The notes under the pieces were generated by a model, which had not been told where the DNA came from, made no database searches, and saw nothing but the letters and a program-made list of their open reading frames with translations. 26,516 nt of DNA from a virus (taxonomy: Duplodnaviria; Caudoviricetes): IMG/VR virus record IMGVR_UViG_3300027804_000196, positions 1 through 26,516 of that record; one strand, given 5' to 3'. The translations under genes and the position numbers were made by a program. How positions within the stretch are numbered: position 1 is the first letter of the stretch; the number at the start of each line of letters is the position of its first letter. Below are positions 12,801-26,248 of the stretch, one piece after another.

Positions 12801-15800
12801 ACATTGCAAAACTTCTTGGTCTGAAGAACGACAACGCACTAACCGAACTCCTTACCATTTACGGCGAGCTAACGCAGCCTGGGGTGAAAGCTAAGACCAA
12901 AGGTCAAGGCAAGTTGTTCATGGGTGCGGAGAAGGGACAGCCACAAGAACTGACTCCTGAATTTAAGAAATGGTTTGGTGATAGTAAGATAGTTGATAAA
13001 AATGGTGAGCCGTTAGTTCTGTACCGTGGGGTACGAGGTAACAAAGAAGGTGCAATTAACGCTGAACCAAGGGAAGGCTACAATGTTTTTGTATCAGACA
13101 GTCCAGATGTCGCTGCCTCATACGGTATGCCAGACGAAACTCATGGAATTCCCGGTTCTATTGTCCCGATTTACGTTAAAGCAGATAAGCTAATTGAGTT
13201 TCCTGTAACTGTAGATCGTTACGGATTTCGTAGTTTTGACAAGATAGGGTTTGATCGCCGCGCAAGATCCCTTGCCCCAGGCGAAGTTCTTGTGGCTAGG
13301 CAGGTTGTTGATATTGGCCCTATGGCCTCAGAAGCTTACCAAGTAGACAAAGAGAAGAAATATTCCCACTACAGCGATATCTACGCACTTGGTAGAGGAA
13401 CTCCAGTTAAGTCAGCTATAGGTAATGTTGGTAAAGCTAAAGTGCCGTTCCCTATATCGAGAGAACAGTCTGCTGAACCTGCTGTTGATCCTACAAACAA
13501 TCTGCCAGATCAATTATTTTTCAGACAGACCCCAGCCCCCATACTAACTGTGGCGGGGCAGCAAGCACAAGCAGCGGTAGCTGCTATGGCGGGTATAACA
13601 AACGCCAAGCCCAAGGGTCCGCAGATGTCTACGCTTCAGAAAGTTGGAGCGTTCTTCCAAGACCCATCGTACCGTCAAGATCAGATCGATAAGTTCCGTG
13701 TGCAGGTGGCGTACAAGGGTGCGGCTGCTGAGTCTAAGCTTGCCATGCTCAACCAGTACAACGGCAAGATCCGTGATGCGTTAGGCAACATTCGTCCTGA
13801 TGTGTTTATGACTGCTGCGGAACATGCCGATACGATGGCTGTTGCCGTGATGAAGGATGGTAAGTTAAAGCTTGATCCAAAGGTGGGTTGGGTTGCAGAG
13901 AAGGGCACTGCCTCCTTCCAAGGTGTTATTGATAAGATCAAAGATCTTGGCACCAAGCTAGGCGATCAGCAGCTCGCGTTTAAATTAGCAAACGATGCGT
14001 TCATTGCTCGTCGTGCGAACTACTTCAAACAGCACCCACAACTGGGTATCTCTGGCCTGCCTGATGATGCGAAGATCAAAGCAGGTATGCAAGCCTTTAA
14101 GGACTTCCCCGAGTTAGAGGCTGCGTTCAAAGAGTTCACCACGTTCAAGAACAACTTAATCGATGCAGGTGTCGATGCAGGGCGCTTTAGTAAAGAGCAA
14201 GCTGCCGAGTGGAAAGAAGCTGCGGACTATGTGCCGTGGAACCGTATCAAAGATTATGAGGACAAGATCGCTACAAGTCCTCAAGCGTACTTCCGTGGGC
14301 TGACCAACCTCAAGCAGATGAAAGAGATCCGAGGCGGCACCGACGAGATCAACGACATCTTTGACAACATGGTGGGCCTGTCCTTCTGGCTTGTTAACGG
14401 TGCGATACGCAACCATGCTGCGGTGCAACTCACTGACGCATTTGTATCCAACGGGTTAGGTGCGCGGCGGGTACGCCAAGGACAGCCTGGAGTTGACCCC
14501 AACAAGACAATCTATATCTACCGCGATGGCAAACCTGAAGTCTATGAGTATGAGTCGATAGCAGATGTTTATGCGTTTAAGGGTGTGGAAAGCTTGGGGG
14601 GTCCGATCCTCAGCAGCTTCACTGCGTTCGCTAACATCTTACGGCGCACGACCACAGCTACTCCCCAGTTCGCATTAAGTCAGTTGTTCCAAGATTCGTA
14701 CCGCGCCACGGTGACATCAGGCGTGAAGAATCCGTTTGAAGCCGCATCTAAAGTTATAAGCGGTGCAATAAGTGCGTACCGTGGAGATGCCACGACACAG
14801 CAGCTTGAGAAGTTTGGGATTGTGGGCGCATATGATCTGATGCCTGGACGTGCCAAGGATGAGATTGAGAAAGAGTTTGGGATTCGGCAGCGGTCTGTGC
14901 TTGAGAAGGGGCTGTCGTTCATGGAGTCGTTCTCCATCGCCTCTGATGCTGCGTTGCGTAAGGCAGTCTTTGAGCAGACGTTAGAAGAAACTAAGTCGCC
15001 GCAGTTCCCCGATGGTGACGTGCTGCTTGCACGGTATCGCGCTCAAGAAGTTATCAACTTTAAACGGCAAGGGGCAAACCGGACGGTGGGTCTAATGCGC
15101 CAACTCATTCCGTTTATGAACGCCTACATCCAAGGTATGGATGTGTTCTACCGCACAATGACCGGACGTGGGGTTGCAGCTACCGAGCGTAGTGAAGCCT
15201 TTAAGATGTTCCTCAGTACGGGTGTGAAGCTTGCCGCGCTTACCACGCTTTACACGATGTTGGTGGGTGGTGATGACGAGTACGAAGGACTGCGTGATTA
15301 TGAGAAGGATAAAAACTTTATCATACCGATTGGGCCCGGAGTAAAGATACCAGTTGCTCCCGAAGTTGGGTTCTTCTTCAAAGTTATTCCTGAGCGTTTA
15401 TATAACTACATCACTAGCCAAGGCACCGAACGTCCGCAGGATGCGGCGGCACTACGCAAGGCTATTGGCACCGCTGCATTTGATGCGTTTAGTGGACCTA
15501 ACTTGACACCCCAAGCTGTCAAGCCTGCGCTTGAGTTGCTGGTGAACTACTCGTTCTTTACGGGCACACCGATAGTTGGACGGGGGCTGGAGAAGTTAGA
15601 ACCTGCACAGCAGTTCACAGACTCGACCTCTGAGATTGCAAAGATGATCGGCGCTCTGGCTGGCATCTCTCCGATGAAGCTTGAGTATTTTGTGCGGGGC
15701 ACCACGGGTATTGCAGGTGGCACGGTGCTGGATCTGTCGAACATGTTGTTCACTGATAGGCCCGACAAGCGGCTGTATGAGATGCCTGCCTTTAAGACGT

Positions 15801-16150
15801 TTATGTATGACAAGATCCCAGGCGGATATAAAGAGCAGTACTACGATCTGCGGGAGAAAGTTGAGCAGGTGGTCTACACCATGAACGGGTTGAAGGCTCA
15901 GGGACGTGCGGAAGAATTGCAGGAATACCTGAACGATGACCGTATCAATCTGCTTGCCTTGCGGCGGTCCATGAATCAGATCGATCAGCAGTTGGAGAAG
16001 ATGCGAGCTTTCCGCAAGCTAATCTCTAACGACCCAACCATGACGGGTGCTGAGAAGAAAGATCGGTTGGATGAGATTGAACGAACGGAGAATGAGTTGC
16101 TCCGTGCCTACAATATTCCAGCGTTACGCAAAGAAGTAGCAGGACTTTAA
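9806..16150 (+). CDS. Large polyvalent virion protein: Gly/Ala-rich N-terminus, zincin-like metallopeptidase, ART-like domain, C-terminal LPD38-like region
   Basis: 2114 aa. HEIVH at 12527-12541 with downstream QEFIAE (12701). FKKWFGDSKIVDKNGEPLVLYRG...VKSAIGN (12962-13430) resembles ART-PolyVal. YEKDKNFIIP...KIPVAPE...KPALELLVNYSFFTG resembles LPD38. Confidence 0.8.
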   Translation: MAFDVRRALQEGYSYSEIAEYLAGKRKFNLVGARNEGYSDEEIVKHLSFEPTIGGQLKEAVKGIVPGAIGLVEQAAVGASALLPDQYEAGAQEAIRGVAAAAKKPFAPEAGYEESVGRKFGEAAGSFVPFLGLGALGVAGRVGAGALATGSGAGEALTRAQQEGATPGQQSLSTGLGAVVGLSELITPFRILSRIPEGEVLSAANRIKRVAMAGGEEAAQEAAAGLAQNLIARGVYKPEQQLIEGLGEQAAYGGAVGALAQGLLDVALGRRAKTAATPAQPTTPAVEEQPAITTPAAPTAPTTFAPARGVPETATQQDLFTEENIQRTAQSTREAQDRLFKLRDEFDLYQRENERLAAAYEREADPVKKQQIYDQAVALAKPLNELKTQIEAVKGTLGAAEGARPGAGEPQLDFEAPLPSIGDRVGQVAKTEYRPDTGTVIGEEAAAPRLNEQQQRMLEEQRVQGIRDKIAAGEPVTQADMMRVKFLERDQYQEEAAKPTPALDLSQQKVTRFPLTLQRTDIEQPKMKVQKQLAAPETRPVTEQDFRTMGIGATNKKLREEILGKDLANSEDRRFVKERLEAYASNPNRSPAITQKVNSFLENSIFLEQMELPLAPRRDEDVKQPEQPVAGASEPSVSVPDQGAAVAATGSEAPVATGVGEPALRTEPRDVAEGKQPRPLTEIQQRAAFSKSIGATYGEQLRTRQNQQAGKAVQQGSFSGVLDALEKSKNPIVQQVAKLARNLKTKIEVSKDAFETFKDETYTSRQRSIDYAKMHLGALDYIRQVAPQIEKLPDGAALPDEVLGRNIQAYEDGEATSKYGLRTIVDNNNSMFALLGLQDGAKLRTKEDFLNLRDAIERVTKNIGENKIRLTSTAVAFPQMGVGGLYDVGSDTIKVSDYKSKDENVLAHEIVHAQVANIVADPKPAQRPTVQRLNKLYEHVKQQYKKAGANEDPDFYRLPYGVSSIQEFIAEGISDPWFQYELSRIKYQNTTAWDKFTEYIAKLLGLKNDNALTELLTIYGELTQPGVKAKTKGQGKLFMGAEKGQPQELTPEFKKWFGDSKIVDKNGEPLVLYRGVRGNKEGAINAEPREGYNVFVSDSPDVAASYGMPDETHGIPGSIVPIYVKADKLIEFPVTVDRYGFRSFDKIGFDRRARSLAPGEVLVARQVVDIGPMASEAYQVDKEKKYSHYSDIYALGRGTPVKSAIGNVGKAKVPFPISREQSAEPAVDPTNNLPDQLFFRQTPAPILTVAGQQAQAAVAAMAGITNAKPKGPQMSTLQKVGAFFQDPSYRQDQIDKFRVQVAYKGAAAESKLAMLNQYNGKIRDALGNIRPDVFMTAAEHADTMAVAVMKDGKLKLDPKVGWVAEKGTASFQGVIDKIKDLGTKLGDQQLAFKLANDAFIARRANYFKQHPQLGISGLPDDAKIKAGMQAFKDFPELEAAFKEFTTFKNNLIDAGVDAGRFSKEQAAEWKEAADYVPWNRIKDYEDKIATSPQAYFRGLTNLKQMKEIRGGTDEINDIFDNMVGLSFWLVNGAIRNHAAVQLTDAFVSNGLGARRVRQGQPGVDPNKTIYIYRDGKPEVYEYESIADVYAFKGVESLGGPILSSFTAFANILRRTTTATPQFALSQLFQDSYRATVTSGVKNPFEAASKVISGAISAYRGDATTQQLEKFGIVGAYDLMPGRAKDEIEKEFGIRQRSVLEKGLSFMESFSIASDAALRKAVFEQTLEETKSPQFPDGDVLLARYRAQEVINFKRQGANRTVGLMRQLIPFMNAYIQGMDVFYRTMTGRGVAATERSEAFKMFLSTGVKLAALTTLYTMLVGGDDEYEGLRDYEKDKNFIIPIGPGVKIPVAPEVGFFFKVIPERLYNYITSQGTERPQDAAALRKAIGTAAFDAFSGPNLTPQAVKPALELLVNYSFFTGTPIVGRGLEKLEPAQQFTDSTSEIAKMIGALAGISPMKLEYFVRGTTGIAGGTVLDLSNMLFTDRPDKRLYEMPAFKTFMYDKIPGGYKEQYYDLREKVEQVVYTMNGLKAQGRAEELQEYLNDDRINLLALRRSMNQIDQQLEKMRAFRKLISNDPTMTGAEKKDRLDEIERTENELLRAYNIPALRKEVAGL
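11667..11846 (+). CDS. Candidate overprinted 59-aa protein in the +1 frame of the polyvalent gene
   Basis: AAGGAG at 11653-11658, 8 nt before ATG 11667. The product MSNNLSNLSPEQVSQAFLYL...EWANLHYALSHVMWQKENSPVH looks like an amphipathic helical protein, while the host frame here is a low-complexity linker. Confidence 0.5.
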   Translation: MSNNLSNLSPEQVSQAFLYLTKELPSLPPDLKHLSQLEWANLHYALSHVMWQKENSPVH

Positions 16151-16174
16151 AAAAACCCCGGCAGAGGGCCGGGG
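16149..16174 (-). terminator. Rho-independent terminator for minus-strand transcripts
   Basis: Minus strand reads CCCCGGC-CCTCT-GCCGGGG followed by T7 (A-run at 16149-16155 on +). Confidence 0.85.
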
Positions 16175-16221
16175 ACAACCTAGCACTAATTGGGAGGAGC
16201 GCCAGGAGAGTGAAGAATTCC
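16149..16221 (-). ncRNA. Candidate ~73-nt anti-RBS small RNA
   Basis: Lies between a sigma70-like promoter (16228-16257) and the terminator. Has a 9-bp stem with two G-U pairs (16206-16198 with 16187-16179), loop CCUCCCAAUU, and 5' seed UUCACUCUCCU. Confidence 0.55.
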
Positions 16222-16227
16222 GAGCGG

Positions 16228-16257
16228 ACTATATCACTTTATCCGCCAACAGCGCAA
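16228..16257 (-). promoter_or_regulatory. Sigma70-like promoter for the candidate sRNA
   Basis: Minus strand TTGCGC-N18-TATAGT with extended -10 (TGaTATAGT). The TGA doubles as the stop codon of the upstream 66-aa gene. Confidence 0.55.
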
Positions 16258-16434
16258 CCCATACATACCCTGCTCTACAACTTGTTTACAGATAAGCTCA
16301 TATCTGAAGCGAGCAGCCTCCCATCGTACTTTCTCGGCAACCTCGTCGGTGTTCGTGCAGGGTATGAAGAAAGACATACCGACATCAAACGTTGACCAAG
16401 GGACTATCATCGTCGCGCCTAAGACTTTTATCAA
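16234..16434 (-). CDS. Small conserved-type phage protein (66 aa), last gene of the replication operon
   Basis: TTG start with perfect SD AGGAGGT (16440-16446). W..F.VG.SFFIPC...G..GLRCWR pattern. Overlaps the primase 3' end. Confidence 0.7.
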   Translation of the reverse strand: MIKVLGATMIVPWSTFDVGMSFFIPCTNTDEVAEKVRWEAARFRYELICKQVVEQGMYGLRCWRIK

Positions 16435-19240
16435 GAATCACCTCCTCTGAGAACACGTTGAGTTTCGAGCTATCAAACTCTAGTGCGTTGACTGCGCTTG
16501 CATCACTAGCAATCGTGCCCTTCAACATGCGTTTGCGCTTGATGCCTAAGAGTGAGCCGTTCTTTTTATAGGGCTGCAACGATCCGTCGAAGTCAATATA
16601 GTCTTTGGATACCGCTGCACGCCAGTCTCGCACATCGATGTATATACGCTTGGTATCTGGCTCGTATCGCACAACGACCTTGCCCTTGGGTTCCCGCAAA
16701 GGAGCAACTGCGATCCCTGTGCGTTTGTCTGCCTCGTTGTTGATAACAAGTATGTCGTGGTAATGCTGCTGCAAGAACCCACCCAGATAGTCATTGACGT
16801 GTGAGAACTCTTCACGGTTCTGCTCGCGGGTGCGCTTCACAAGATCTACTGCGTGTTTAAAGACTGGCTCGACGGCAATGTCGTGCAGTCCTAAGTTCTT
16901 GGCAATGATGCCGCCCGTAATCGCAATCGCTATACCGGCAGACCAGAAGCGTTCTGTGTTAACGATGTTGGCTGCTTTATCTAGCTTCTCGTTGATCCGG
17001 TTTAGCAGTTCAATAACAGTGGGCAAGTTCATAGCGATATACCGGATGTAAGGATCTATCGCATGCCCGTAGTTGTTTGTCAGTCTGCCAAAGTGAGCCT
17101 TAGACCATGTCGGGTCATCGTGCGGATCAGGCAGGATGTAGTCCTCCAGTATGCGTAACAGCTCCGCTTCAGGAAACGACTTAATGGTTAACAGCGCGTC
17201 CTTGATACGCCGGTTGGATGTTGTTACGACAGGGATCGACCACGATACATTGTTTACACGTTCGACGTTCGCCTTGGAGGACATGCGGTTCTTGCCCTTG
17301 CCTGACGTGATGTCATAGACCAGATTCGACATGATCTTGGGTTCCATGTTCGTCAACTCGTCAATCGTCGGAGTCAGACTCTGCATGACACCCAACCGTT
17401 GCAGCCTGTGGTTGTGCGTATCTTTGTAAGACAGGAGAAGTTCTTTAGGTCTGCCGTATATGGAGTTAATGCCATGAAGCAGCGTCGTTTTGCCCGAGCC
17501 ACCCTTCTGACTGATGAGGTTCAGCACAAATCCATCGAGCATCCCGCCACCTACAAACTTCATCAGTGGGCCACCGAATCCCATGAAGAAAGCAAACGCT
17601 CGCTGCTCCATGTTGGGCCTACCCCATGCGTTGATGACATCTTTCCATACGTGGAAGTCGCCCTTCGACTGCATCATCGGCACGATAGGTAGTGTGGCAC
17701 TTGTGGGCGGGCTGTAAACCTCTTCGCCTGTTGCAAGAATCTCACGTTCGCCAATCACAAAGCTGCTGTTGTCATCGAGCCAACCAAATTGTTTACGTGC
17801 AATCTCTGACTTGCCGATTGCTTGCAGTTCTTCAACCCATCTTGTGACATACAACATAAGCGCATCCTGTTTCTTACCTAGCACTGCCATACCCTGGGCA
17901 GCAATCGTGTTAACAAATCGTTCTTTAGAAAGTGCGGCGTTCAAAGGAATCATAAATTCTCTGGTGCCATCCTTGGGTAGATGGAGGCGCAGCCACAATG
18001 TTTCACCTTCTTCGGGATCGTGGATACGCTTCACCACATAGAAATCATATGGGTATATGAGTTCGTCTTCCTCGTCGGCACTTGATGCCTTGCGGTAAAT
18101 ACCGCCGACACGCCCCCTAAAGAACGGGAACGGATACTGCGGGATCTGATAAGTCTTTTCTTCTTTTGTTATAGGTTCTACAGATACGACAACACGTTCT
18201 TCTTCAGTCGCTGCTACCACCTCCCGATCAAGAAGAATAGGCGACGAAACTTTTTGCGGACAATCCGCGCATAACGCTGGGTTTTCTTTACGATACCAAT
18301 CACAGGTGTACGGTCCTTTGGTTTTAGCAGCTTTATCCTTAGTGCGTTGTGGGTTGTACTCTGGGTGCTTTTTGGACAGTAGCTGGATAGCCTTTTCACC
18401 ATCGACGCACCGTAACGCTACGGACAACGCACCACGCCATAAAGGTTCTGCTAGGGTTTCTTGATTCTCGTAGGCGTATGCGATCTGAGCGCATCCTTCA
18501 CCATTGAGAGACTTTATTAATATGTTCTTGAACTTAGACTGATAGTTCCCCATGAGTGCCATTGTCGTTGCGTCCATCTGGCGCACAAAGGGCTTTTCTC
18601 CAGGGATGTCAAGGATTGACTCAACCGTAGCTAGTTGATCTTCAAAGTCTTCAAAGTTAATACGCTTGCCCCACATCAGCACGGTCACAGCTTGTGGGCT
18701 GTCGGGGTTTTTAAAGTTCAGTGTTTCTGGGATTCGCAGGATGCGTGCTGTATCTGCTGTTACTGCGGGGTCTGCGAAAAGCCCGTGCGTATTGCACAGT
18801 GCCTTGAGTCCTTCTGCTTTGGGTTTCCATGTTGCGGCACTCAGCGGTCTGTCGGCCACCCAGTACACGTGCAGTCCACGCCCTGAGTTAATGACTGCTG
18901 TAGGCTTAGGAAGTTTTGCTTGCTTTACAAACGCTTTGAGTGCGTTTAGTCCTTCGGTTTGATCTTCGTATTTTTTACCTGCGCCACAATCGATGTCTAG
19001 ATACAGTGATCCAAGCTCTTTAACGTTTGTGCCTTTGCGCCCCTCCTTGGCATTGTTGTATGAAGCTGTTGCGAAGTATGCGTCGTAACCATCATGAACC
19101 AGCACATCTGCTTGGTCTGACAACTCCTCAATGGTATCGACGAATATTTGTTTTGGTGATCTGTCGCTGTGTAATCCCACCGCACAGTATGGCCCCGTTG
19201 GGGGGAGCACTGCCGCTAGGAAGTCATTCCTTGAAAACAT
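16385..19240 (-). CDS. AEP (RepB'-like) primase fused to a DUF927 / AAA+ helicase
   Basis: 951 aa. LYLDID, SGRGLHVYW and DTARILRIP.T.N.K primase motifs; Cys cluster C..(8)..CADC; KQFGW; Walker A GGSGKTT; Walker B PTIDE. Confidence 0.85.
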   Translation of the reverse strand: MFSRNDFLAAVLPPTGPYCAVGLHSDRSPKQIFVDTIEELSDQADVLVHDGYDAYFATASYNNAKEGRKGTNVKELGSLYLDIDCGAGKKYEDQTEGLNALKAFVKQAKLPKPTAVINSGRGLHVYWVADRPLSAATWKPKAEGLKALCNTHGLFADPAVTADTARILRIPETLNFKNPDSPQAVTVLMWGKRINFEDFEDQLATVESILDIPGEKPFVRQMDATTMALMGNYQSKFKNILIKSLNGEGCAQIAYAYENQETLAEPLWRGALSVALRCVDGEKAIQLLSKKHPEYNPQRTKDKAAKTKGPYTCDWYRKENPALCADCPQKVSSPILLDREVVAATEEERVVVSVEPITKEEKTYQIPQYPFPFFRGRVGGIYRKASSADEEDELIYPYDFYVVKRIHDPEEGETLWLRLHLPKDGTREFMIPLNAALSKERFVNTIAAQGMAVLGKKQDALMLYVTRWVEELQAIGKSEIARKQFGWLDDNSSFVIGEREILATGEEVYSPPTSATLPIVPMMQSKGDFHVWKDVINAWGRPNMEQRAFAFFMGFGGPLMKFVGGGMLDGFVLNLISQKGGSGKTTLLHGINSIYGRPKELLLSYKDTHNHRLQRLGVMQSLTPTIDELTNMEPKIMSNLVYDITSGKGKNRMSSKANVERVNNVSWSIPVVTTSNRRIKDALLTIKSFPEAELLRILEDYILPDPHDDPTWSKAHFGRLTNNYGHAIDPYIRYIAMNLPTVIELLNRINEKLDKAANIVNTERFWSAGIAIAITGGIIAKNLGLHDIAVEPVFKHAVDLVKRTREQNREEFSHVNDYLGGFLQQHYHDILVINNEADKRTGIAVAPLREPKGKVVVRYEPDTKRIYIDVRDWRAAVSKDYIDFDGSLQPYKKNGSLLGIKRKRMLKGTIASDASAVNALEFDSSKLNVFSEEVILDKSLRRDDDSPLVNV

Positions 19241-19324
19241 GCCGTCGTTCCAATGCGCCGTCGTAAATTAAGGTAGGCAGGGATAGGACGGCGGACTACC
19301 CTTTTCGGGTGCCCCCTAGCCTCC
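19241..19324 (-). promoter_or_regulatory. Structured primase leader (candidate pseudoknotted cis-RNA or ssi-like priming site)
   Basis: Outer stem 19314-19324 with 19272-19282, inner hairpin ACCC-GAAAA-GGGU (19298-19310), and loop CGCCGUC complementary to two downstream GACGGC copies. Confidence 0.5.
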
Positions 19325-19345
19325 TCAAACTTTTAAGTATCCGTA

Positions 19346-20239
19346 TCAGTCATCCCACTCTTCAAGAACTTTGCTGAGATCTTTCTTGGGTGCAGGCTCT
19401 TCTTTCTTCACGCTGCGTTTGGTAGGCTCAGCGGTTGCTTCCACTTCGGCTGTAGCAGGGGTAACTGCTGCGGCTTGTGGGGGTGCACCAGGAATATCAA
19501 GGTCAGCGGTTTCCGGTACACCGTCTACTTGTGCAACCGTCATGGTAATCGCTTTCTGAGCGGTTTCGGACTTACCCTTCTCAATGACCGTCGTGAACTC
19601 GTTGGTCTCCAAATAACGCACAGGCTTGAACGTCAGCTTGGGCGATTGGCTACTTGTATCGAAACGCATCTCAGTAACCACGGCAGAGATAGGAATACCC
19701 TTGGTGCCAATCAAACGAGCATAGGTTTGCAAAGGCCACTTCCCAGGTTCACCTTCACCAAAGATAGACATGCTAGGCAGCGTAAGCTGATAGACCTCGC
19801 CATCAAGATCATGTCCAAGCACCACAGCAAGACGTTGTTGGAAACGGCAAGCACGTGAATCACCAGCGCCAGAGCCTTTAACATCTTGTGGGCAACCTTT
19901 GCAGGTTTTGTTCTGCGGTTCCTTCACAGACGGGTCAGGGGTTTCACCATCAGGAGACCAGCAAGTGGGACGGGTTATAGCACCCTTCTTGTATGTACCC
20001 ATATAAAAGATACGAGATACCTTGGGCGCTGCGTTTACGATAACTACGTTCATCGCACGATCTTCGTTCTTGGCAACTTCTTTGCCGTTGAGCATCATGC
20101 GGAACACACCACCCTCGATGGAGATGCGGGGGACACTGCCTCCGCTACCCATAAGCGCACGGGTTACATCGTCTAACCCTCCCAACTGTGCAAGGTGTGC
20201 GGGAAGGTTGCTACTTAAAACAGTTAATTCACTCATCAT
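19346..20239 (-). CDS. Putative single-stranded DNA-binding protein
   Basis: 297 aa. Beta-rich core with four Cys (CWS...CKGC...RAC), Ala/Pro linker, acidic aromatic tail EEWDD, and position next to the primase. Confidence 0.55.
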   Translation of the reverse strand: MMSELTVLSSNLPAHLAQLGGLDDVTRALMGSGGSVPRISIEGGVFRMMLNGKEVAKNEDRAMNVVIVNAAPKVSRIFYMGTYKKGAITRPTCWSPDGETPDPSVKEPQNKTCKGCPQDVKGSGAGDSRACRFQQRLAVVLGHDLDGEVYQLTLPSMSIFGEGEPGKWPLQTYARLIGTKGIPISAVVTEMRFDTSSQSPKLTFKPVRYLETNEFTTVIEKGKSETAQKAITMTVAQVDGVPETADLDIPGAPPQAAAVTPATAEVEATAEPTKRSVKKEEPAPKKDLSKVLEEWDD

Positions 20240-20625
20240 TTTCTCCGAATGGTGACAGCGTACTTGCTGTCGATGTTAAGACCAGGGGGAAGCAGGTCAG
20301 GGTTTTCTTCAAGGAACACGGACATGTTGGTTTGGGCAATACGCTTTTCCAACAGTTCTAAAGCACTGTGCTCTTTGATGAAGTTGTGGAACGAGTGCCA
20401 GTCGCTTGTCCAGTATCGTTTGGCAACCTTGCGAGTAACCGTACCATACTCGGTTTTGAAACCATCAGCACCCATGTGTTTGCATACCTCAAGCAGTTCG
20501 CTCTCGATAAGCTCTAGACTTTCTTTTAGTTCTGCATCCTCCTTCTCGTACTGCTCTGCAATCTCTTTGCGTTTGTCGCGTATCTTAATGTACGTCTTGA
20601 CAAGCTTATCAGCTTTCATATCCAT
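20236..20625 (-). CDS. Conserved-type phage coiled-coil protein (129 aa), function unknown
   Basis: Start moved to ATG 20625 based on SD AGGAG. N-terminal coiled coil, then KTEYGT...DW..F..FI...LLEKRI...PPGL. ATGA-coupled to the SSB. Confidence 0.75.
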   Translation of the reverse strand: MDMKADKLVKTYIKIRDKRKEIAEQYEKEDAELKESLELIESELLEVCKHMGADGFKTEYGTVTRKVAKRYWTSDWHSFHNFIKEHSALELLEKRIAQTNMSVFLEENPDLLPPGLNIDSKYAVTIRRK

Positions 20626-20652
20626 TTTCACTCTCCTAGTTATTACAACTAA

Positions 20653-20681
20653 ATATTACCAATAAACTTTATGGATGTCAA
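20653..20681 (-). promoter_or_regulatory. Strong sigma70-type promoter for the 129-aa gene / SSB / primase operon
   Basis: Minus strand TTGACA (20676-20681)-N17-TAATAT (20653-20658), with TG extended -10, in an AT-rich gap. Confidence 0.8.
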
Positions 20682-22225
20682 CTCTCCTTCATGATGTTGT
20701 CGTAAAGGTCAACCAATCTCGTGTGGATGTCCACTTTGGATTGGAGCATGGCATACATCTTTCTCTCTACCGGCGAGCCTTGAAGGTGCACCACCGTACA
20801 TGGATTACGTTGGCCTGCTCGATGCACACGTGCGTTCGCCTGTAAATAAGTTTCTACAGACATCACTGGAGACCAATAAATCACAACGTTCGCTGCGTGA
20901 AGTGTGACACCGTGCGACGCTGCTTGCGGTTGGATGATAAGCACCTTGGGGTCAGGCTGCGTTTGGAATCGATTAAAGATATCAGTGCGTTTGTTAACAC
21001 TAACCTCACCGTTCACAATTTCGCAGGAGTAGCCCGACTTGGTAAGCTCTTCATTAACAAGTTGTATGGCATGTCGGTACGGTACAAAAACAATCACCTT
21101 GTGACTTGCCTCGTCAATCACTTCTTTCAACGCTTCAATACGATTAGACGCATCGAACGACACCACCTCACCACTGTCTGAGTAAACTGCACCACAAGAT
21201 AATTGCAGAAGTTTGTTCAGGTTGGCTGCGGCATTGACTGTTGTGATCTCTTCACCCGCTGCTATCGTTGTCATGTGCTTGCGGATGTGCTCGTAGTACT
21301 GCATCTGCTGTTTAGTTAGCGGCACGTCCCGAGTCACATAGGTCATGTCCGGTAAATCTAAGCACTGCTCTTTAGTAAACCTGATAGCTGGCTGTAGCAC
21401 TTGATGCACGATGTCCTCTGCGCGGGGCTTGGGTACCCACTTGAAGTTCGTTATCTTTTGCATCACTTGGTCTTTGAATGAACCAAAGAAGCGTGGTACG
21501 CCAGAAGGATTGATGATCCTTGCTAATCCGTATGCGTCTGTTGGTGCCTGTGCTGCGGGTGTGCCCGTTAACATCCAGATCCATGTATCTGCTTTGATGA
21601 TTGATTGAAGTGCCTTCCATCTTTTTGTACTCACTGTTTTGTATGCGTTAGCTTCATCGACCACGATCAGATCGAAGTCGTTTTGGTTAACTGCATCTTT
21701 TATAATTTCTAGACCGTCGAAGTTACAGATCACAAAGTCAGAGTCTGTGTTCACTGCCTCAATGCGTTTCTTTCTGTCGTAGCTGTGGGCCACCGTCACT
21801 GTGCGGTGCATGGCAAATTTAAACAGATCATTCACCCATGCTGACTGCATGATGGATAGTGGGCACAGCACAAGAACTCTACGGATCATGCCGATGTTCA
21901 TCAGGTAATCCGCTGCCCAGATAACACTGCCAGTCTTGCCGGTGCCCTGCTCGTTAAAGCAAAAGCCTCGTCGATGCAACGTTAAGAACTCTGCCGTTGT
22001 GCGTTGATGTGCAAACGGTTTGTGTAGTCCAGGCCAATCGTACTGTGCAGTGATGGGGGACGGGACGTTTTTGATTCGCAGGTTCTTGAGGACTTGTGCT
22101 TCTTCTAGCCCCCACTTAACTAGCACCTCCCCACTGTCTAAGATCTTGCTCTTTGGTATGACCGTTGTGATCCGGTTCGGTTGCCTGACTCTCAGGAGCA
22201 GGGCTTTGTTAGCGACTATCTGCAT
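20678..22225 (-). CDS. SNF2-family (SF2) helicase
   Basis: 515 aa. NEQGTGKT (I), VLCP (Ia), VVDEAN (II), LTGTP (III), HGVTL (V), QANARVHRAGQ (VI). Confidence 0.92.
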   Translation of the reverse strand: MQIVANKALLLRVRQPNRITTVIPKSKILDSGEVLVKWGLEEAQVLKNLRIKNVPSPITAQYDWPGLHKPFAHQRTTAEFLTLHRRGFCFNEQGTGKTGSVIWAADYLMNIGMIRRVLVLCPLSIMQSAWVNDLFKFAMHRTVTVAHSYDRKKRIEAVNTDSDFVICNFDGLEIIKDAVNQNDFDLIVVDEANAYKTVSTKRWKALQSIIKADTWIWMLTGTPAAQAPTDAYGLARIINPSGVPRFFGSFKDQVMQKITNFKWVPKPRAEDIVHQVLQPAIRFTKEQCLDLPDMTYVTRDVPLTKQQMQYYEHIRKHMTTIAAGEEITTVNAAANLNKLLQLSCGAVYSDSGEVVSFDASNRIEALKEVIDEASHKVIVFVPYRHAIQLVNEELTKSGYSCEIVNGEVSVNKRTDIFNRFQTQPDPKVLIIQPQAASHGVTLHAANVVIYWSPVMSVETYLQANARVHRAGQRNPCTVVHLQGSPVERKMYAMLQSKVDIHTRLVDLYDNIMKES

Positions 22226-22460
22226 AATATTTTCTATATAGGTTGCTAACCGCCCCTTTGCGGGTCTTCATAAAATCACTTGTCCGAAATATTTTCCTAC
22301 CGTTAGGGGTAGTAACGTATGCGCTCCATCCAAAATCACATGTCCATGATGGAGGGTTTGTTTGAACTAACCGCTTACGTTCTTCCTTAAATACTTCTAA
22401 ATATCTACCTTCAATCTTTACCAAAGCCGCAAACTCGTCTTCACTTATTTTCGCTTTCAT
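22209..22460 (-). CDS. Hypothetical protein (83 aa, MKAKISEDEF...)
   Basis: ATG 22460 preceded by GGAGAGTGAAA. AT-richer than its neighbours; overlaps the helicase start. Confidence 0.6.
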   Translation of the reverse strand: MKAKISEDEFAALVKIEGRYLEVFKEERKRLVQTNPPSWTCDFGWSAYVTTPNGRKIFRTSDFMKTRKGAVSNLYRKYYADSR

Positions 22461-22483
22461 TTTCACTCTCCATGACACCAACA

Positions 22484-22510
22484 GGCCGAAAGTGAATTTT
22501 CACTCCGGCC
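22484..22510 (-). promoter_or_regulatory. Intergenic hairpin upstream of the 83-aa and helicase genes
   Basis: Minus strand GGCCG-G-AGTGA-AAAT-TCACT-TT-CGGCC. No poly-U tail. Confidence 0.55.
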
Positions 22511-23894: not shown

Positions 23895-25692
23895 ATCCTG
23901 CCTCACAATTAAGGGGTAAATCAATGCACCACTGAGGGCGACTTCGCATGCACTGTTCAACATACGCTTTGGCTTCCTCAGCTTCTTCCTTCGGTGCAAT
24001 ACAAGCAACTGCGTCATGGACCGTTAGCACCACCTTGTAGCGTTTAGCGATCAACGTCATCTGCTCGGCAATCACACAACGTGCAATAGCTTGGCACAGA
24101 TTCTCAATCACTTTACCACCATACGTCTTGGTTGCGCCTTTTCGAGTGGGGTACTCGTACTGCGTCTTGCCATCGGTAGTTACTTTGTGCAGCCCCTCAT
24201 ATCGTAGCCACAACTTGTTAGGCAGCATGAAGCCCTGCTTCAGGGGATCGAATGTCAGTACACCTTCGCGCCCAAGGGACGCAGACTGCTTTTGAATGAT
24301 CGCTTCTAGGCATCGTTGGGCACTCGACCATAGCTCGGGGATCTTGGCATAGGTGCTGCGGTACACATCGATAATGCGTTTACATTCAGCTTCCTCTACC
24401 TCAGTGCCAAGCACCTTTAGCTGAGCGGCAAATTTTGCCGCCCCCATGCCGTAACCTGCACCCAAGATTGTCGTCTTACCGACAAACCTTTCGTCCTTGC
24501 TGATCTCTTCAACCGGCTTACCGTAGATGGCACTAGCCATAATCTTATAGACATCCTCACCTTTCTCGAAGGCTTCTACGAGATCGTTCTGCTCAGCAAG
24601 CCAAGCCAGCACCCGTGCCTCGATCTGCGATGAGTCCGAGTCGATAATCACAAACCCTTCCGGTGCGCGTATCGCTCGCTTTAACTTGTTAGCGTTCTGT
24701 CCACGGCTCGGTAGATTCTGCAAGTTCACCTTGTCGTCACCACCCCAACGCCCCGTGTGGGCAGCGTAATACTTAAGGGGCACAGGCATACGCCCACGTT
24801 TAGCGATGTCGATGAACCGTTGTGTGCGGGTCTCTTCAAGGGTTGTCTTGTTACCAAGTCTGGCACCGACCAGGATCTGCACCCGAGGGTCAGGGTGGTT
24901 AGCTAACTCTTTAAACGCCTCGTCTGTCTTGGCAAACGCCCATGCTTCCTTACCCGTCTTAGCACTGATCTTGACAGGAGGCTCGACGCCCATCTTCTTG
25001 AGCAGTTCTGCAAACTTGTCATTGGACATCAGGTCATCACGGTTAGCCGCAGCCATCTCAAGCAGTTGCTCTTTCTTAGCCTTGACATTCTCCAGGTGCT
25101 GCTCCAAAAGCAGCAAGTCAAGCTCAAGCGTAGGTTCGGTAAACATCTTGATGGTTGTGTCGATAACTTTCAATTCCTTGGTGGGGAAGTTTTGAATCAA
25201 GATATCGAACAAGGCACGGGTCAGATTGACATCATTAATACAGTACCCGCTGTACGCCTCTAACTCATCAGGACTGAAGTCTGCCCTACGTTTACCAAGC
25301 GCATTAACTACCTCCGTTCCCTTCTTTCCAAGCTGGTACTTCTCAGCAAGAAATGCGAGGCTTCCTCCCACATCCACACCGTGCCACGCACGAGCCATAG
25401 ACAGAGTGTCGAGAATACCTTTAGGGTAAATATCAAAACGCCAAGAAAGAATAGAGGCATCAAACACAGCATTGTGAGCAAGAAGAAAGCTATTTTGCCA
25501 GTCAAACTCATGGAGCCAATCGTACGTCTGCTGATGGTCCCCCGAAAACCAAATGGTCGGTTCGTCATTGACTTGCACTCCTACACCAATAGCTTCAAAC
25601 AATTCGCTGCGAACGTACTCTTCAGTTGTGATCTTTGATAGGCTGTATTCTTTATCGTAATAAGTTTCAAAGTCTAGTGCAATGATGTTCAT
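23869..25692 (-). CDS. polA: Phage DNA polymerase, family A, with 3'-5' exonuclease
   Basis: ExoI LDFET, ExoII HNAVFD, ExoIII YCIND; HTGRW; motif A DSSQIEARVLA; motif B RFVGKTTILGAGYG; motif C VHD. Confidence 0.95.
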   Translation of the reverse strand: MNIIALDFETYYDKEYSLSKITTEEYVRSELFEAIGVGVQVNDEPTIWFSGDHQQTYDWLHEFDWQNSFLLAHNAVFDASILSWRFDIYPKGILDTLSMARAWHGVDVGGSLAFLAEKYQLGKKGTEVVNALGKRRADFSPDELEAYSGYCINDVNLTRALFDILIQNFPTKELKVIDTTIKMFTEPTLELDLLLLEQHLENVKAKKEQLLEMAAANRDDLMSNDKFAELLKKMGVEPPVKISAKTGKEAWAFAKTDEAFKELANHPDPRVQILVGARLGNKTTLEETRTQRFIDIAKRGRMPVPLKYYAAHTGRWGGDDKVNLQNLPSRGQNANKLKRAIRAPEGFVIIDSDSSQIEARVLAWLAEQNDLVEAFEKGEDVYKIMASAIYGKPVEEISKDERFVGKTTILGAGYGMGAAKFAAQLKVLGTEVEEAECKRIIDVYRSTYAKIPELWSSAQRCLEAIIQKQSASLGREGVLTFDPLKQGFMLPNKLWLRYEGLHKVTTDGKTQYEYPTRKGATKTYGGKVIENLCQAIARCVIAEQMTLIAKRYKVVLTVHDAVACIAPKEEAEEAKAYVEQCMRSRPQWCIDLPLNCEAGYGESYGDC

Positions 25693-26000
25693 AGTTTGCC
25701 AAGGTACGTGAAGAGGTCTTGAGACTTGGCACCAGACGATAGCAGTCTGCCCCTTGCGTCATCTTTAGACTTGGTCTCACGTATAAACTTCTTGGGGATC
25801 AGCTTCTTATTTAATCTGTTATACACCGTCGCAACAGACATAGACTTAATACCGGATGCAACCGTGGACTTGTTTATGCCACCGTCCATTTCGTTACATG
25901 CTACGTGGTTGATGATCCGCAGATCAGTTTCATCCAGGTTGTACTTAGTTTGCACACCGTTCAGTGTGGTGACAAGGTCAGCAAGTTTGGCAATACTCAT
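25689..26000 (-). CDS. Winged-helix (MarR-like) DNA-binding protein
   Basis: 103 aa. MSVATVYNRLNKKL recognition helix and SKDDARGRLL wing. AGGAG RBS; ATGA-coupled to polA. Confidence 0.6.
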   Translation of the reverse strand: MSIAKLADLVTTLNGVQTKYNLDETDLRIINHVACNEMDGGINKSTVASGIKSMSVATVYNRLNKKLIPKKFIRETKSKDDARGRLLSSGAKSQDLFTYLGKL

Positions 26001-26248
26001 TTCACTCTCCTAATTGCGTAATAATAAACAGGACGTTTGGCTACATAGTTTGTGAATGTAAAGTTTACTACAACTATTCGTTTTTCTAAAAGAGGTGCCA
26101 TGTATCTTCGCACTGTTCTTTCGCTAACTTTCATAATTTTTGCAAGATCCTTGATGGTCAGTCCGTGCTGATTCTTCAGCCTACGTACGATCTCCATCTG
26201 CCTACCAATAGAATCACGTCGTGTGTAGGACTTGGGTTTGGATCTCAT
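25997..26248 (-). CDS. HTH DNA-binding protein
   Basis: 83 aa. GLTIKDLAKIMKVSERTVRRYM is a classic HTH. Confidence 0.75.
   Translation of the reverse strand: MRSKPKSYTRRDSIGRQMEIVRRLKNQHGLTIKDLAKIMKVSERTVRRYMAPLLEKRIVVVNFTFTNYVAKRPVYYYAIRRVK

Follow-up and report, generated by a model that had tools for sequence, protein, structure and literature searches.

The window, the whole 26,516-nucleotide stretch of DNA analyzed here, is part of a tailed phage genome with convergent arms, the plus strand carrying the late genes and the minus strand the early and replication genes. The plus arm includes an endolysin, virion proteins, and a 2114-aa LPD38 polyvalent protein. The minus arm encodes DNA polymerase A, a PD-(D/E)XK exonuclease, an HNH-like protein, an SNF2 helicase, a Gam/Gp157-like protein, a 297-aa protein that matched no family and that we take, from gene order, to be SSB-like, a DUF927 primase-helicase, and a small conserved ORF of 58 aa, for which a weak DUF7303 lead was obtained (score 0.84). 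The Gam-like identity is a lead only: PF22709 scored below its cutoff, Atlas clusters gave 0.91, and a single-sequence model of the protein, of low confidence (pLDDT 54), had a long N-terminal helix. The sequencing runs that contain the window DNA are aquatic, and the bacterial genomes scanned for phage relatives or prophages yielded none. Upstream of the primase gene, at 19258-19326 on the minus strand, lies a stretch resembling the int-alpA RNA motif RF02996 (27.5 bits in the window); this motif exceeds its 35.8 cutoff in two relatives, L149 and L150 (38.7), and a small HTH gene is situated just upstream of it in some relatives (L170:14731-14961, L181:1895-2137).

The gap between the two arms contains a predicted RNA gene on the minus strand, the components of which are listed in Table 1. 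An earlier note on this DNA had described a candidate small RNA (sRNA) here, and every part that it listed was found in place: TTGCGC, an 18-nt spacer between the −35 and −10 boxes, TATAGT, the seed, a 9-bp stem, and the terminator. The second anti-Shine-Dalgarno (anti-SD) stretch that it placed in the stem loop corresponds to the CU-rich loop of hairpin 1. The promoter is missing from a consensus promoter scan because its score falls below the threshold of that scan. The minus-strand fold of the element has a predicted energy of −26.9 kcal/mol (z −3.3), in which the single-stranded part of the seed is unpaired with a probability of 0.6-0.9, and the plus strand reaches −23.8 kcal/mol without forming the first hairpin. 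Minus-strand-only folding, as originally claimed, therefore holds within the window but not across 56 representative relatives, in which a comparison of sense and antisense folds (25 versus 30) gave no family-wide strand bias; given that the sense strand does not fold better among these relatives, the strand argument is local only. Four RNA runs, available as assembled contigs in which a 70-nt species is not resolvable, gave scattered low-depth pieces over 15000-21000, and one such contig, X7 (15946-16201), overlaps the 3′ half of the predicted RNA from the late-gene side. The 58-aa protein, encoded immediately upstream of the predicted RNA across the whole family, could be a partner of it.

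Table 1. Positions of the predicted RNA gene, its parts, and the sites complementary to its seed in the window
Feature	Position	Strand	Remarks
Whole element (promoter-like signals, seed, hairpin, terminator)	16147-16257	minus	
Predicted −35 box, TTGCGC	16252-16257	minus	inside the GLRxWR codons of the 58-aa ORF
Predicted extended −10, TGn-TATAGT	16228-16236 (hexamer 16228-16233)	minus	overlaps the stop codon of the 58-aa ORF
Predicted sRNA, ~70-75 nt (seed, hairpin 1, intrinsic terminator)	16147-16221	minus	5′ end inferred
Seed, UUCACUCUCCU	16204-16214	minus	mostly unpaired; stem 1 begins in its final CCU
Hairpin 1, 9-bp stem	16179-16206	minus	CU-rich loop is a second anti-SD stretch
Intrinsic terminator, 7 GC pairs (16156-16174) and U7	16149-16174	minus	common to the convergent late arm
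Small conserved ORF, 58 aa (SFFIPC...YGLRxWR)	16234-16410	minus	promoter in its 3′ end
Target 1, RBS tag of the 129-aa Gam/Gp157-like gene (20236-20625)	20627-20637	minus	
Target 2, RBS tag of an 83-aa ORF (22209-22460)	22462-22471	minus	ORF is an insertion at the start of the SNF2 helicase unit
Conserved hairpin just upstream of target 2	22484-22510	minus	62 loci; A-rich loop, variable stem
Target 3, RBS tag of a 103-aa ORF (25689-26000; no family match)	26001-26011	minus	directly upstream of the DNA polymerase gene

As the earlier note had stated, exact complements of the seed are present at the ribosome-binding sites (RBSs) of three minus-strand genes, and the 13-bp extension with a G-U pair that it proposed for the Gam-like RBS was seen in a near-identical locus, L089. 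When one mismatch or fewer was allowed, the 11-mer gave four matches against an expectation of 0.39, a number reached by none of 100 shuffles. One of the four is antisense and lies inside the candidate RNA; the other three are sense and lie 0-1 nt before start codons. The predicted cofold gain at the three targets was −11.8, −16.0, and −10.0 kcal/mol, compared with −0.2 to −8.9 kcal/mol at five other starts. The Gam-like gene is the first behind a TTGACA-17-TAATAT promoter (20653-20681), in agreement with the claim that a target is the first gene behind a TTGACA promoter. The second target is defined by position: it is the RBS behind a conserved hairpin, and the gene that it serves varies. In many relatives that gene is the helicase, elsewhere an inserted ORF takes its place, and in the window the 83-aa ORF has captured the RBS. 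The third target is also present in the close relatives L003 and L006.

Several further features were observed around the helicase unit. The arms of the hairpin upstream of target 2 resemble, in the window, the tag and its complement, and this hairpin may be a protein-binding leader element. A promoter-led hairpin motif with common flanks (GTAAGGTG...AACCGCATCAG-like) occurs between the HNH-like and helicase genes in L063, L148, L049, L150, L143, L041, L056, and L084, and no Rfam match to it was obtained in L063 or L150. In L125, a tRNA-like cloverleaf is inserted downstream of the HNH-like gene, before the helicase unit.

Three scans for relatives gave 165 loci, of which 24 were without flank and 141 had the primase end and enough flank. 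The element was found at the equivalent position in 136 of these 141 loci, down to ~50% primase identity. L052 is the sole locus seen without the element, and there the convergent gene abuts the small ORF; L064, L065, L066, and L158 were dropped in script parsing although the element is visible. Two cultured relatives, Rollin and RHph_TM3_14A, have primases of 25-28% identity and carry, at the corresponding place, either a terminator or no gap, without a CU-rich seed; the element is absent from this position in both. Clustering of the relatives at 90% primase identity gave the 56 representatives, all of which have two or more hairpins; CUCC is present in 53 and CACU close to the 5′ end in 46, these counts being uncorrected for kinship. 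The RNA measures 50-79 nt in 53 of the 56 representatives, CACU is entirely unpaired in 34 of 46 relatives, and a CU-rich loop is found in 30 of 56. In an AT-rich lineage (L072, L109, L163, L164), the RNA is longer, at 100-115 nt, and the anti-RBS stretch lies inside a large loop. An A-U/G-C compensatory change was observed in the stem of hairpin 1 (alignment A3). A covariance model (R1) captured four terminator pairs and was left unused.

The promoter is conserved together with the RNA. In 53 of 54 relatives, 17-18 nt separate the −10 from a −35-like box, a count that is uncorrected for kinship and in which the −10 was picked by score, and TGn precedes the −10 in 39 of 56. Given that the scoring script picked the −10, the count of TAnnnT is partly a product of construction. 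The promoter spacing is unchanged where the stop codon of the 58-aa ORF shifts 27-51 nt downstream. Where the −35 overlaps the ORF, Leu is encoded by TTR in 50 of 51 relatives (again uncorrected for kinship), compared with 756 of 2323 (33%) in their primases; the −35 region of the 58-aa ORF is under synonymous constraint.

Perfect complements of at least 9 nt were counted in the 40 loci for which 7 kb or more of upstream sequence was available. On the strand of the RNA, 31 of 127 fell at gene starts, the start zones covering 4.3%, compared with none of 69 on the opposite strand. The 31 start matches comprise the Gam-like gene (14), the helicase (7), an inserted small ORF (2), the SSB-like gene (2), and six singles. 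Two targets are conserved, one at the Gam/Gp157-like gene and the other at whichever gene opens the helicase unit. The predicted pairing spans the SD and spacer, and for many helicase genes it reaches over the GUG start codon as well. The tagged genes mostly head early or replication units, and late-strand starts seldom match. In the window, none of the lysis or structural genes on the plus strand has an 8-nt seed match at its start, and the proteins scanned from the near-complete relatives G001 and G004, a subset of ORFs, included no integrase. The lysis or dormancy switch suggested in the earlier note thus has no direct support, and early-gene shut-off or negative feedback is favored over a lysogeny switch.

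Predicted pairing at the Gam-like RBS was stronger with the phage’s own RNA than with those of others (−18.5 versus −14.5 kcal/mol; z −8.3, n = 49, and z −5.5, n = 21, kinship ignored). In permutations that likewise ignore kinship, own-RNA preference was also observed at the helicase-unit RBS (z −5.7, n = 30) and, with weaker effects, at SSB-like and helicase starts; control starts (primase, small ORF, exonuclease, polymerase, HNH) gave no such preference (absolute z ≤1.3). Because these permutations disregard kinship, columns flanking the CACU/AGUG anchor were scored. For the Gam-like targets, pairing at the column 5′ of CACU is complete (35 of 35: G-C in 23, U-A in 9, G-U in 2, and A-U in 1), and among 27 helicase-unit targets the third column 3′ of CACU forms a Watson-Crick pair in 16, all four types being represented. 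A tree-aware test, in which independent drift was simulated along the tree from a paired root and for which the columns were chosen after inspection, gave P values of 0.0005 and 0.015 for these two columns, respectively; four columns were tested in all, and the other two fell short of significance (P = 0.54 and 0.20). Sister-pair swap tests were also not significant (11 versus 8; 7 versus 11), and in a further test of this kind only one of five clustering levels gave P < 0.05 (nominal P = 0.047). The seed-target co-variation on which the original proposal had been staked is thus borne out at two columns but not at two others or in sister-pair swaps, and the signal therefore rests on a moderate number of deep changes. 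Short-term drift between close sisters is often unmatched, pairing is poor in some lineages (L148, L072, L109), and part of the seed-tag match is ordinary SD/anti-SD complementarity.

In a clade of 12 representatives, the helix is shifted to the 5′ side of the SD. Here, the RBS reads CUUGGAGA in 12 of 12, and the RNAs carry the stretch UCUCC(A/G)AG in 10 of 12. Two near-complete genomes of this clade, G003 and G004, have CTTGGAGA before eight and seven distinct early-strand starts, respectively, with an antisense copy in the RNA of each genome; the tagged genes include an AAA ATPase, a DUF3150-like gene, the helicase, and the Gam-like gene. The RNAs of G003 and G004 match 31 of 202 early-strand starts within their own clade, a count that includes two genes duplicated in a terminal repeat, versus 6 of 352 outside it. 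Outside the CUUGGAGA clade, genome-wide counts of matched starts are much the same for own and foreign RNAs. At the end of the tailed-phage contig of G004, a 223-aa ORF (L180:380-1051, minus strand) scores above the Pfam Gemini_coat cutoff and may be a chimera or a passenger.

Comparison with known systems qualifies the earlier statement that the RNA belongs to no named family: all Rfam scores are below threshold, but the architecture is that of the RF02278 double-hairpin RNAs. The RF02278 model scored 30 bits in the window and at most 30 bits in 19 further loci, against a gathering cutoff of 50, and anti-hemB (RF02837) scored 23 bits in the window and at most 28.3 elsewhere, against a cutoff of 49.5. 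RF02278 comprises betaproteobacterial “toxic” sRNAs, the double-hairpin RNAs of Burkholderia (ncS03, ncS05, ncS27, and ncS62; PMC5688073, PMC4603805), which are predicted to occlude numerous RBSs and impair growth on overexpression (PMC5688073). As described in the accessible parts of these sources, they share with the present RNA a length of 57-92 nt, a CU-rich 5′ end and first loop, a terminator hairpin, and predicted RBS occlusion by both patches; the present RNA is likewise predicted to fold into two hairpins, with unpaired regions that carry CU-rich anti-RBS stretches. By contrast, they are chromosomal, multi-copy, and aimed at host metabolism, whereas the present RNA is phage-encoded and has a lineage-specific seed extension that follows the phage’s own RBSs. 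Given that the build is alike but the RF02278 score falls short, capture from a betaproteobacterial host can be put forward only as a hypothesis.

Two regulatory precedents are closer in function. The c4 RNA of P1 and P7 is a 77-nt trans-acting antisense RNA that blocks translation by pairing close to an RBS of its own phage and the specificity of which underlies heteroimmunity (PMC12197685, PMC8198154). The likeness lies in a trans-acting phage RNA that pairs, here by prediction, near an RBS of its own phage. According to the accessible text of those sources, c4 acts on one antirepressor operon in a temperate phage, whereas the predicted targets here belong to several replication and early units, namely Gam-like, helicase-unit, and ATPase-cluster genes; the C4 Rfam model had no match in the window at E values up to 5. 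OppZ and CarZ are RNase E products of operon 3′ ends that pair with their own transcript in negative feedback (PMC7398697). The predicted pairing with the RBS of the RNA’s own upstream operon (Gam-like), with co-variation, is similar, but OppZ and CarZ act, as far as the accessible part of that report goes, on one operon, whereas for the present RNA an internal promoter is predicted, and its predicted targets extend to other units. In sequence, the RNA has one mark of a trans-acting base-pairing sRNA, an accessible, conserved seed with compensatory changes against distant targets, although the sister-pair swap tests were not significant. The RNA is a member of none of these three groups, its closest functional precedents being c4 and OppZ/CarZ. 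The accessible supplements of a survey of 10,006 phage RNAs (PMC10690425), alignment archives excluded, contained no match, and the RNA may be among the candidates of that survey. A literature search covering few subscription papers found no published description of the element.

Several other explanations of these observations were considered. The same pairing might be exerted by a seed that is merely the 3′ end of long early mRNAs, either processed by RNase in the manner of OppZ/CarZ or folding back in cis on the 5′ RBS, instead of being made from a promoter of its own. The seed does sit at the terminator that closes the Gam-SSB-primase unit, the small ORF reads through into the RNA in about half of the relatives, and autoregulation by 3′-UTRs is established (PMC7398697). 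Nevertheless, the conserved −35/−10 spacing and the synonymous constraint at the −35 point to a primary transcript, and the targets lie on several units, tens of kilobases distant, which makes this explanation unlikely. A host-directed anti-SD RNA, captured from or convergent with the double-hairpin “toxic” sRNAs and damping host translation, would treat the phage RBS matches as secondary. Such an origin would fit the build of two CU patches and two hairpins seen in RF02278 (PMC5688073) and the weak Rfam matches that recur among relatives, but phage genes would then be expected to escape, and the observed match instead extends past the SD and co-changes; this possibility is considered decidedly unlikely.

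The remaining two explanations dispense with antisense pairing as a function. If the gap held a bidirectional terminator beside an old inverted copy of an RBS cassette, pairing would have no function. A convergent-arm gap does require a terminator, and the drift between close sister pairs is unmatched, but several separate co-changes are distributed along the tree, and the distant cultured relatives make do with a terminator or no gap and lack the CU-rich seed; an inert cassette is thus very improbable. It is hardly credible that the 11-mer serves in DNA as an operator or in RNA as a protein-bound tag, with the inverted copy just one more site: HTH genes are present in the phage and the sites follow promoters at a distance of 10-20 nt, but orientation is fixed, sense at start codons and antisense within the RNA gene, and of the departures in the three core columns six are G-U and one is C-A, the outer columns containing several C-A.

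A possible parallel exists in cluster K mycobacteriophages. The SAS of this cluster, reported in 2011, is an extended asymmetric RBS tag before a subset of genes, the RNA or protein partner of which was left open, and K1 genomes have a single SAS copy on the complementary strand (PMC3203893). The likeness to the present family consists of a repeated extended RBS tag with an opposite-strand copy; the sequence, phage, and host are unrelated, and the accessible part of PMC3203893 does not propose an antisense partner. In Adephagia, the opposite-strand copy is situated in a hairpin loop of a promoter-led, structured noncoding region at 58.6 kb (L190:33580-33760) that matches 149 phage records. Among 11 phages, the anti-SAS loop carries a CCUCCUAUCCC core in four, is degenerate and CU-rich in two, and is absent from five (TM4, Pixie, Keshu, Marshawn, and Nergal), of which TM4 and Pixie still have SAS. 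The anti-SAS loop of cluster K is therefore regarded as a lead to the same design and not as proof of it.

Taken together, the conserved element is real and is very likely an sRNA predicted to pair with the early RBS tags of its own phage. The earlier proposal of a trans-acting sRNA on operon-entry RBSs holds as regards predicted pairing, on the evidence of conservation, enrichment at starts, and co-variation. On the preferred reading, judged from sequence, the locus probably encodes a 70-nt phage sRNA with its own promoter, the seed of which pairs with early-RBS tags and would block translation. Such an sRNA would be transcribed as a separate species from a σ70-type promoter at the end of the replication arm, and its seed would base-pair over the SD and start codon of early transcription units. 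sRNA pairing over an RBS blocks entry of the 30S subunit, and the pairing predicted here would in this way repress translation. A U tail is a general hint of Hfq help, and the tail of the present RNA suggests that a host chaperone such as Hfq may assist pairing. The RNA level would rise with template copy number in lytic growth, so that early and replication-entry genes would be shut down. This early-gene shut-off is preferred to a lysogeny switch because the heads of early units are tagged, late matches are few, and no integrase was seen. Given that tag and mirror have changed together between relatives, one RNA likely turns off a set of early genes.

A wider proposal, possible but doubtful, is that these phages operate an RNA-level regulon in which each early gene bears a private RBS extension and one antisense sRNA serves as master switch. 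Lineage re-coding would then create RNA “immunity groups”, the sRNA could silence superinfecting kin, and the SAS of cluster K would be explained; the SAS question in any case becomes testable in cultured K1 mycobacteriophages. The phage sRNAs reviewed in PMC12197685 act, in the accessible part of that review, on one phage operon or on host genes, from which a single RNA reading a co-evolving tag on a whole set of its own phage’s early genes would differ. The family provides natural orthogonal seed/RBS pairs and, if the preferred reading is true, the sRNA would give phages dependent on host RNA polymerase a post-transcriptional means of turning their early genes off.
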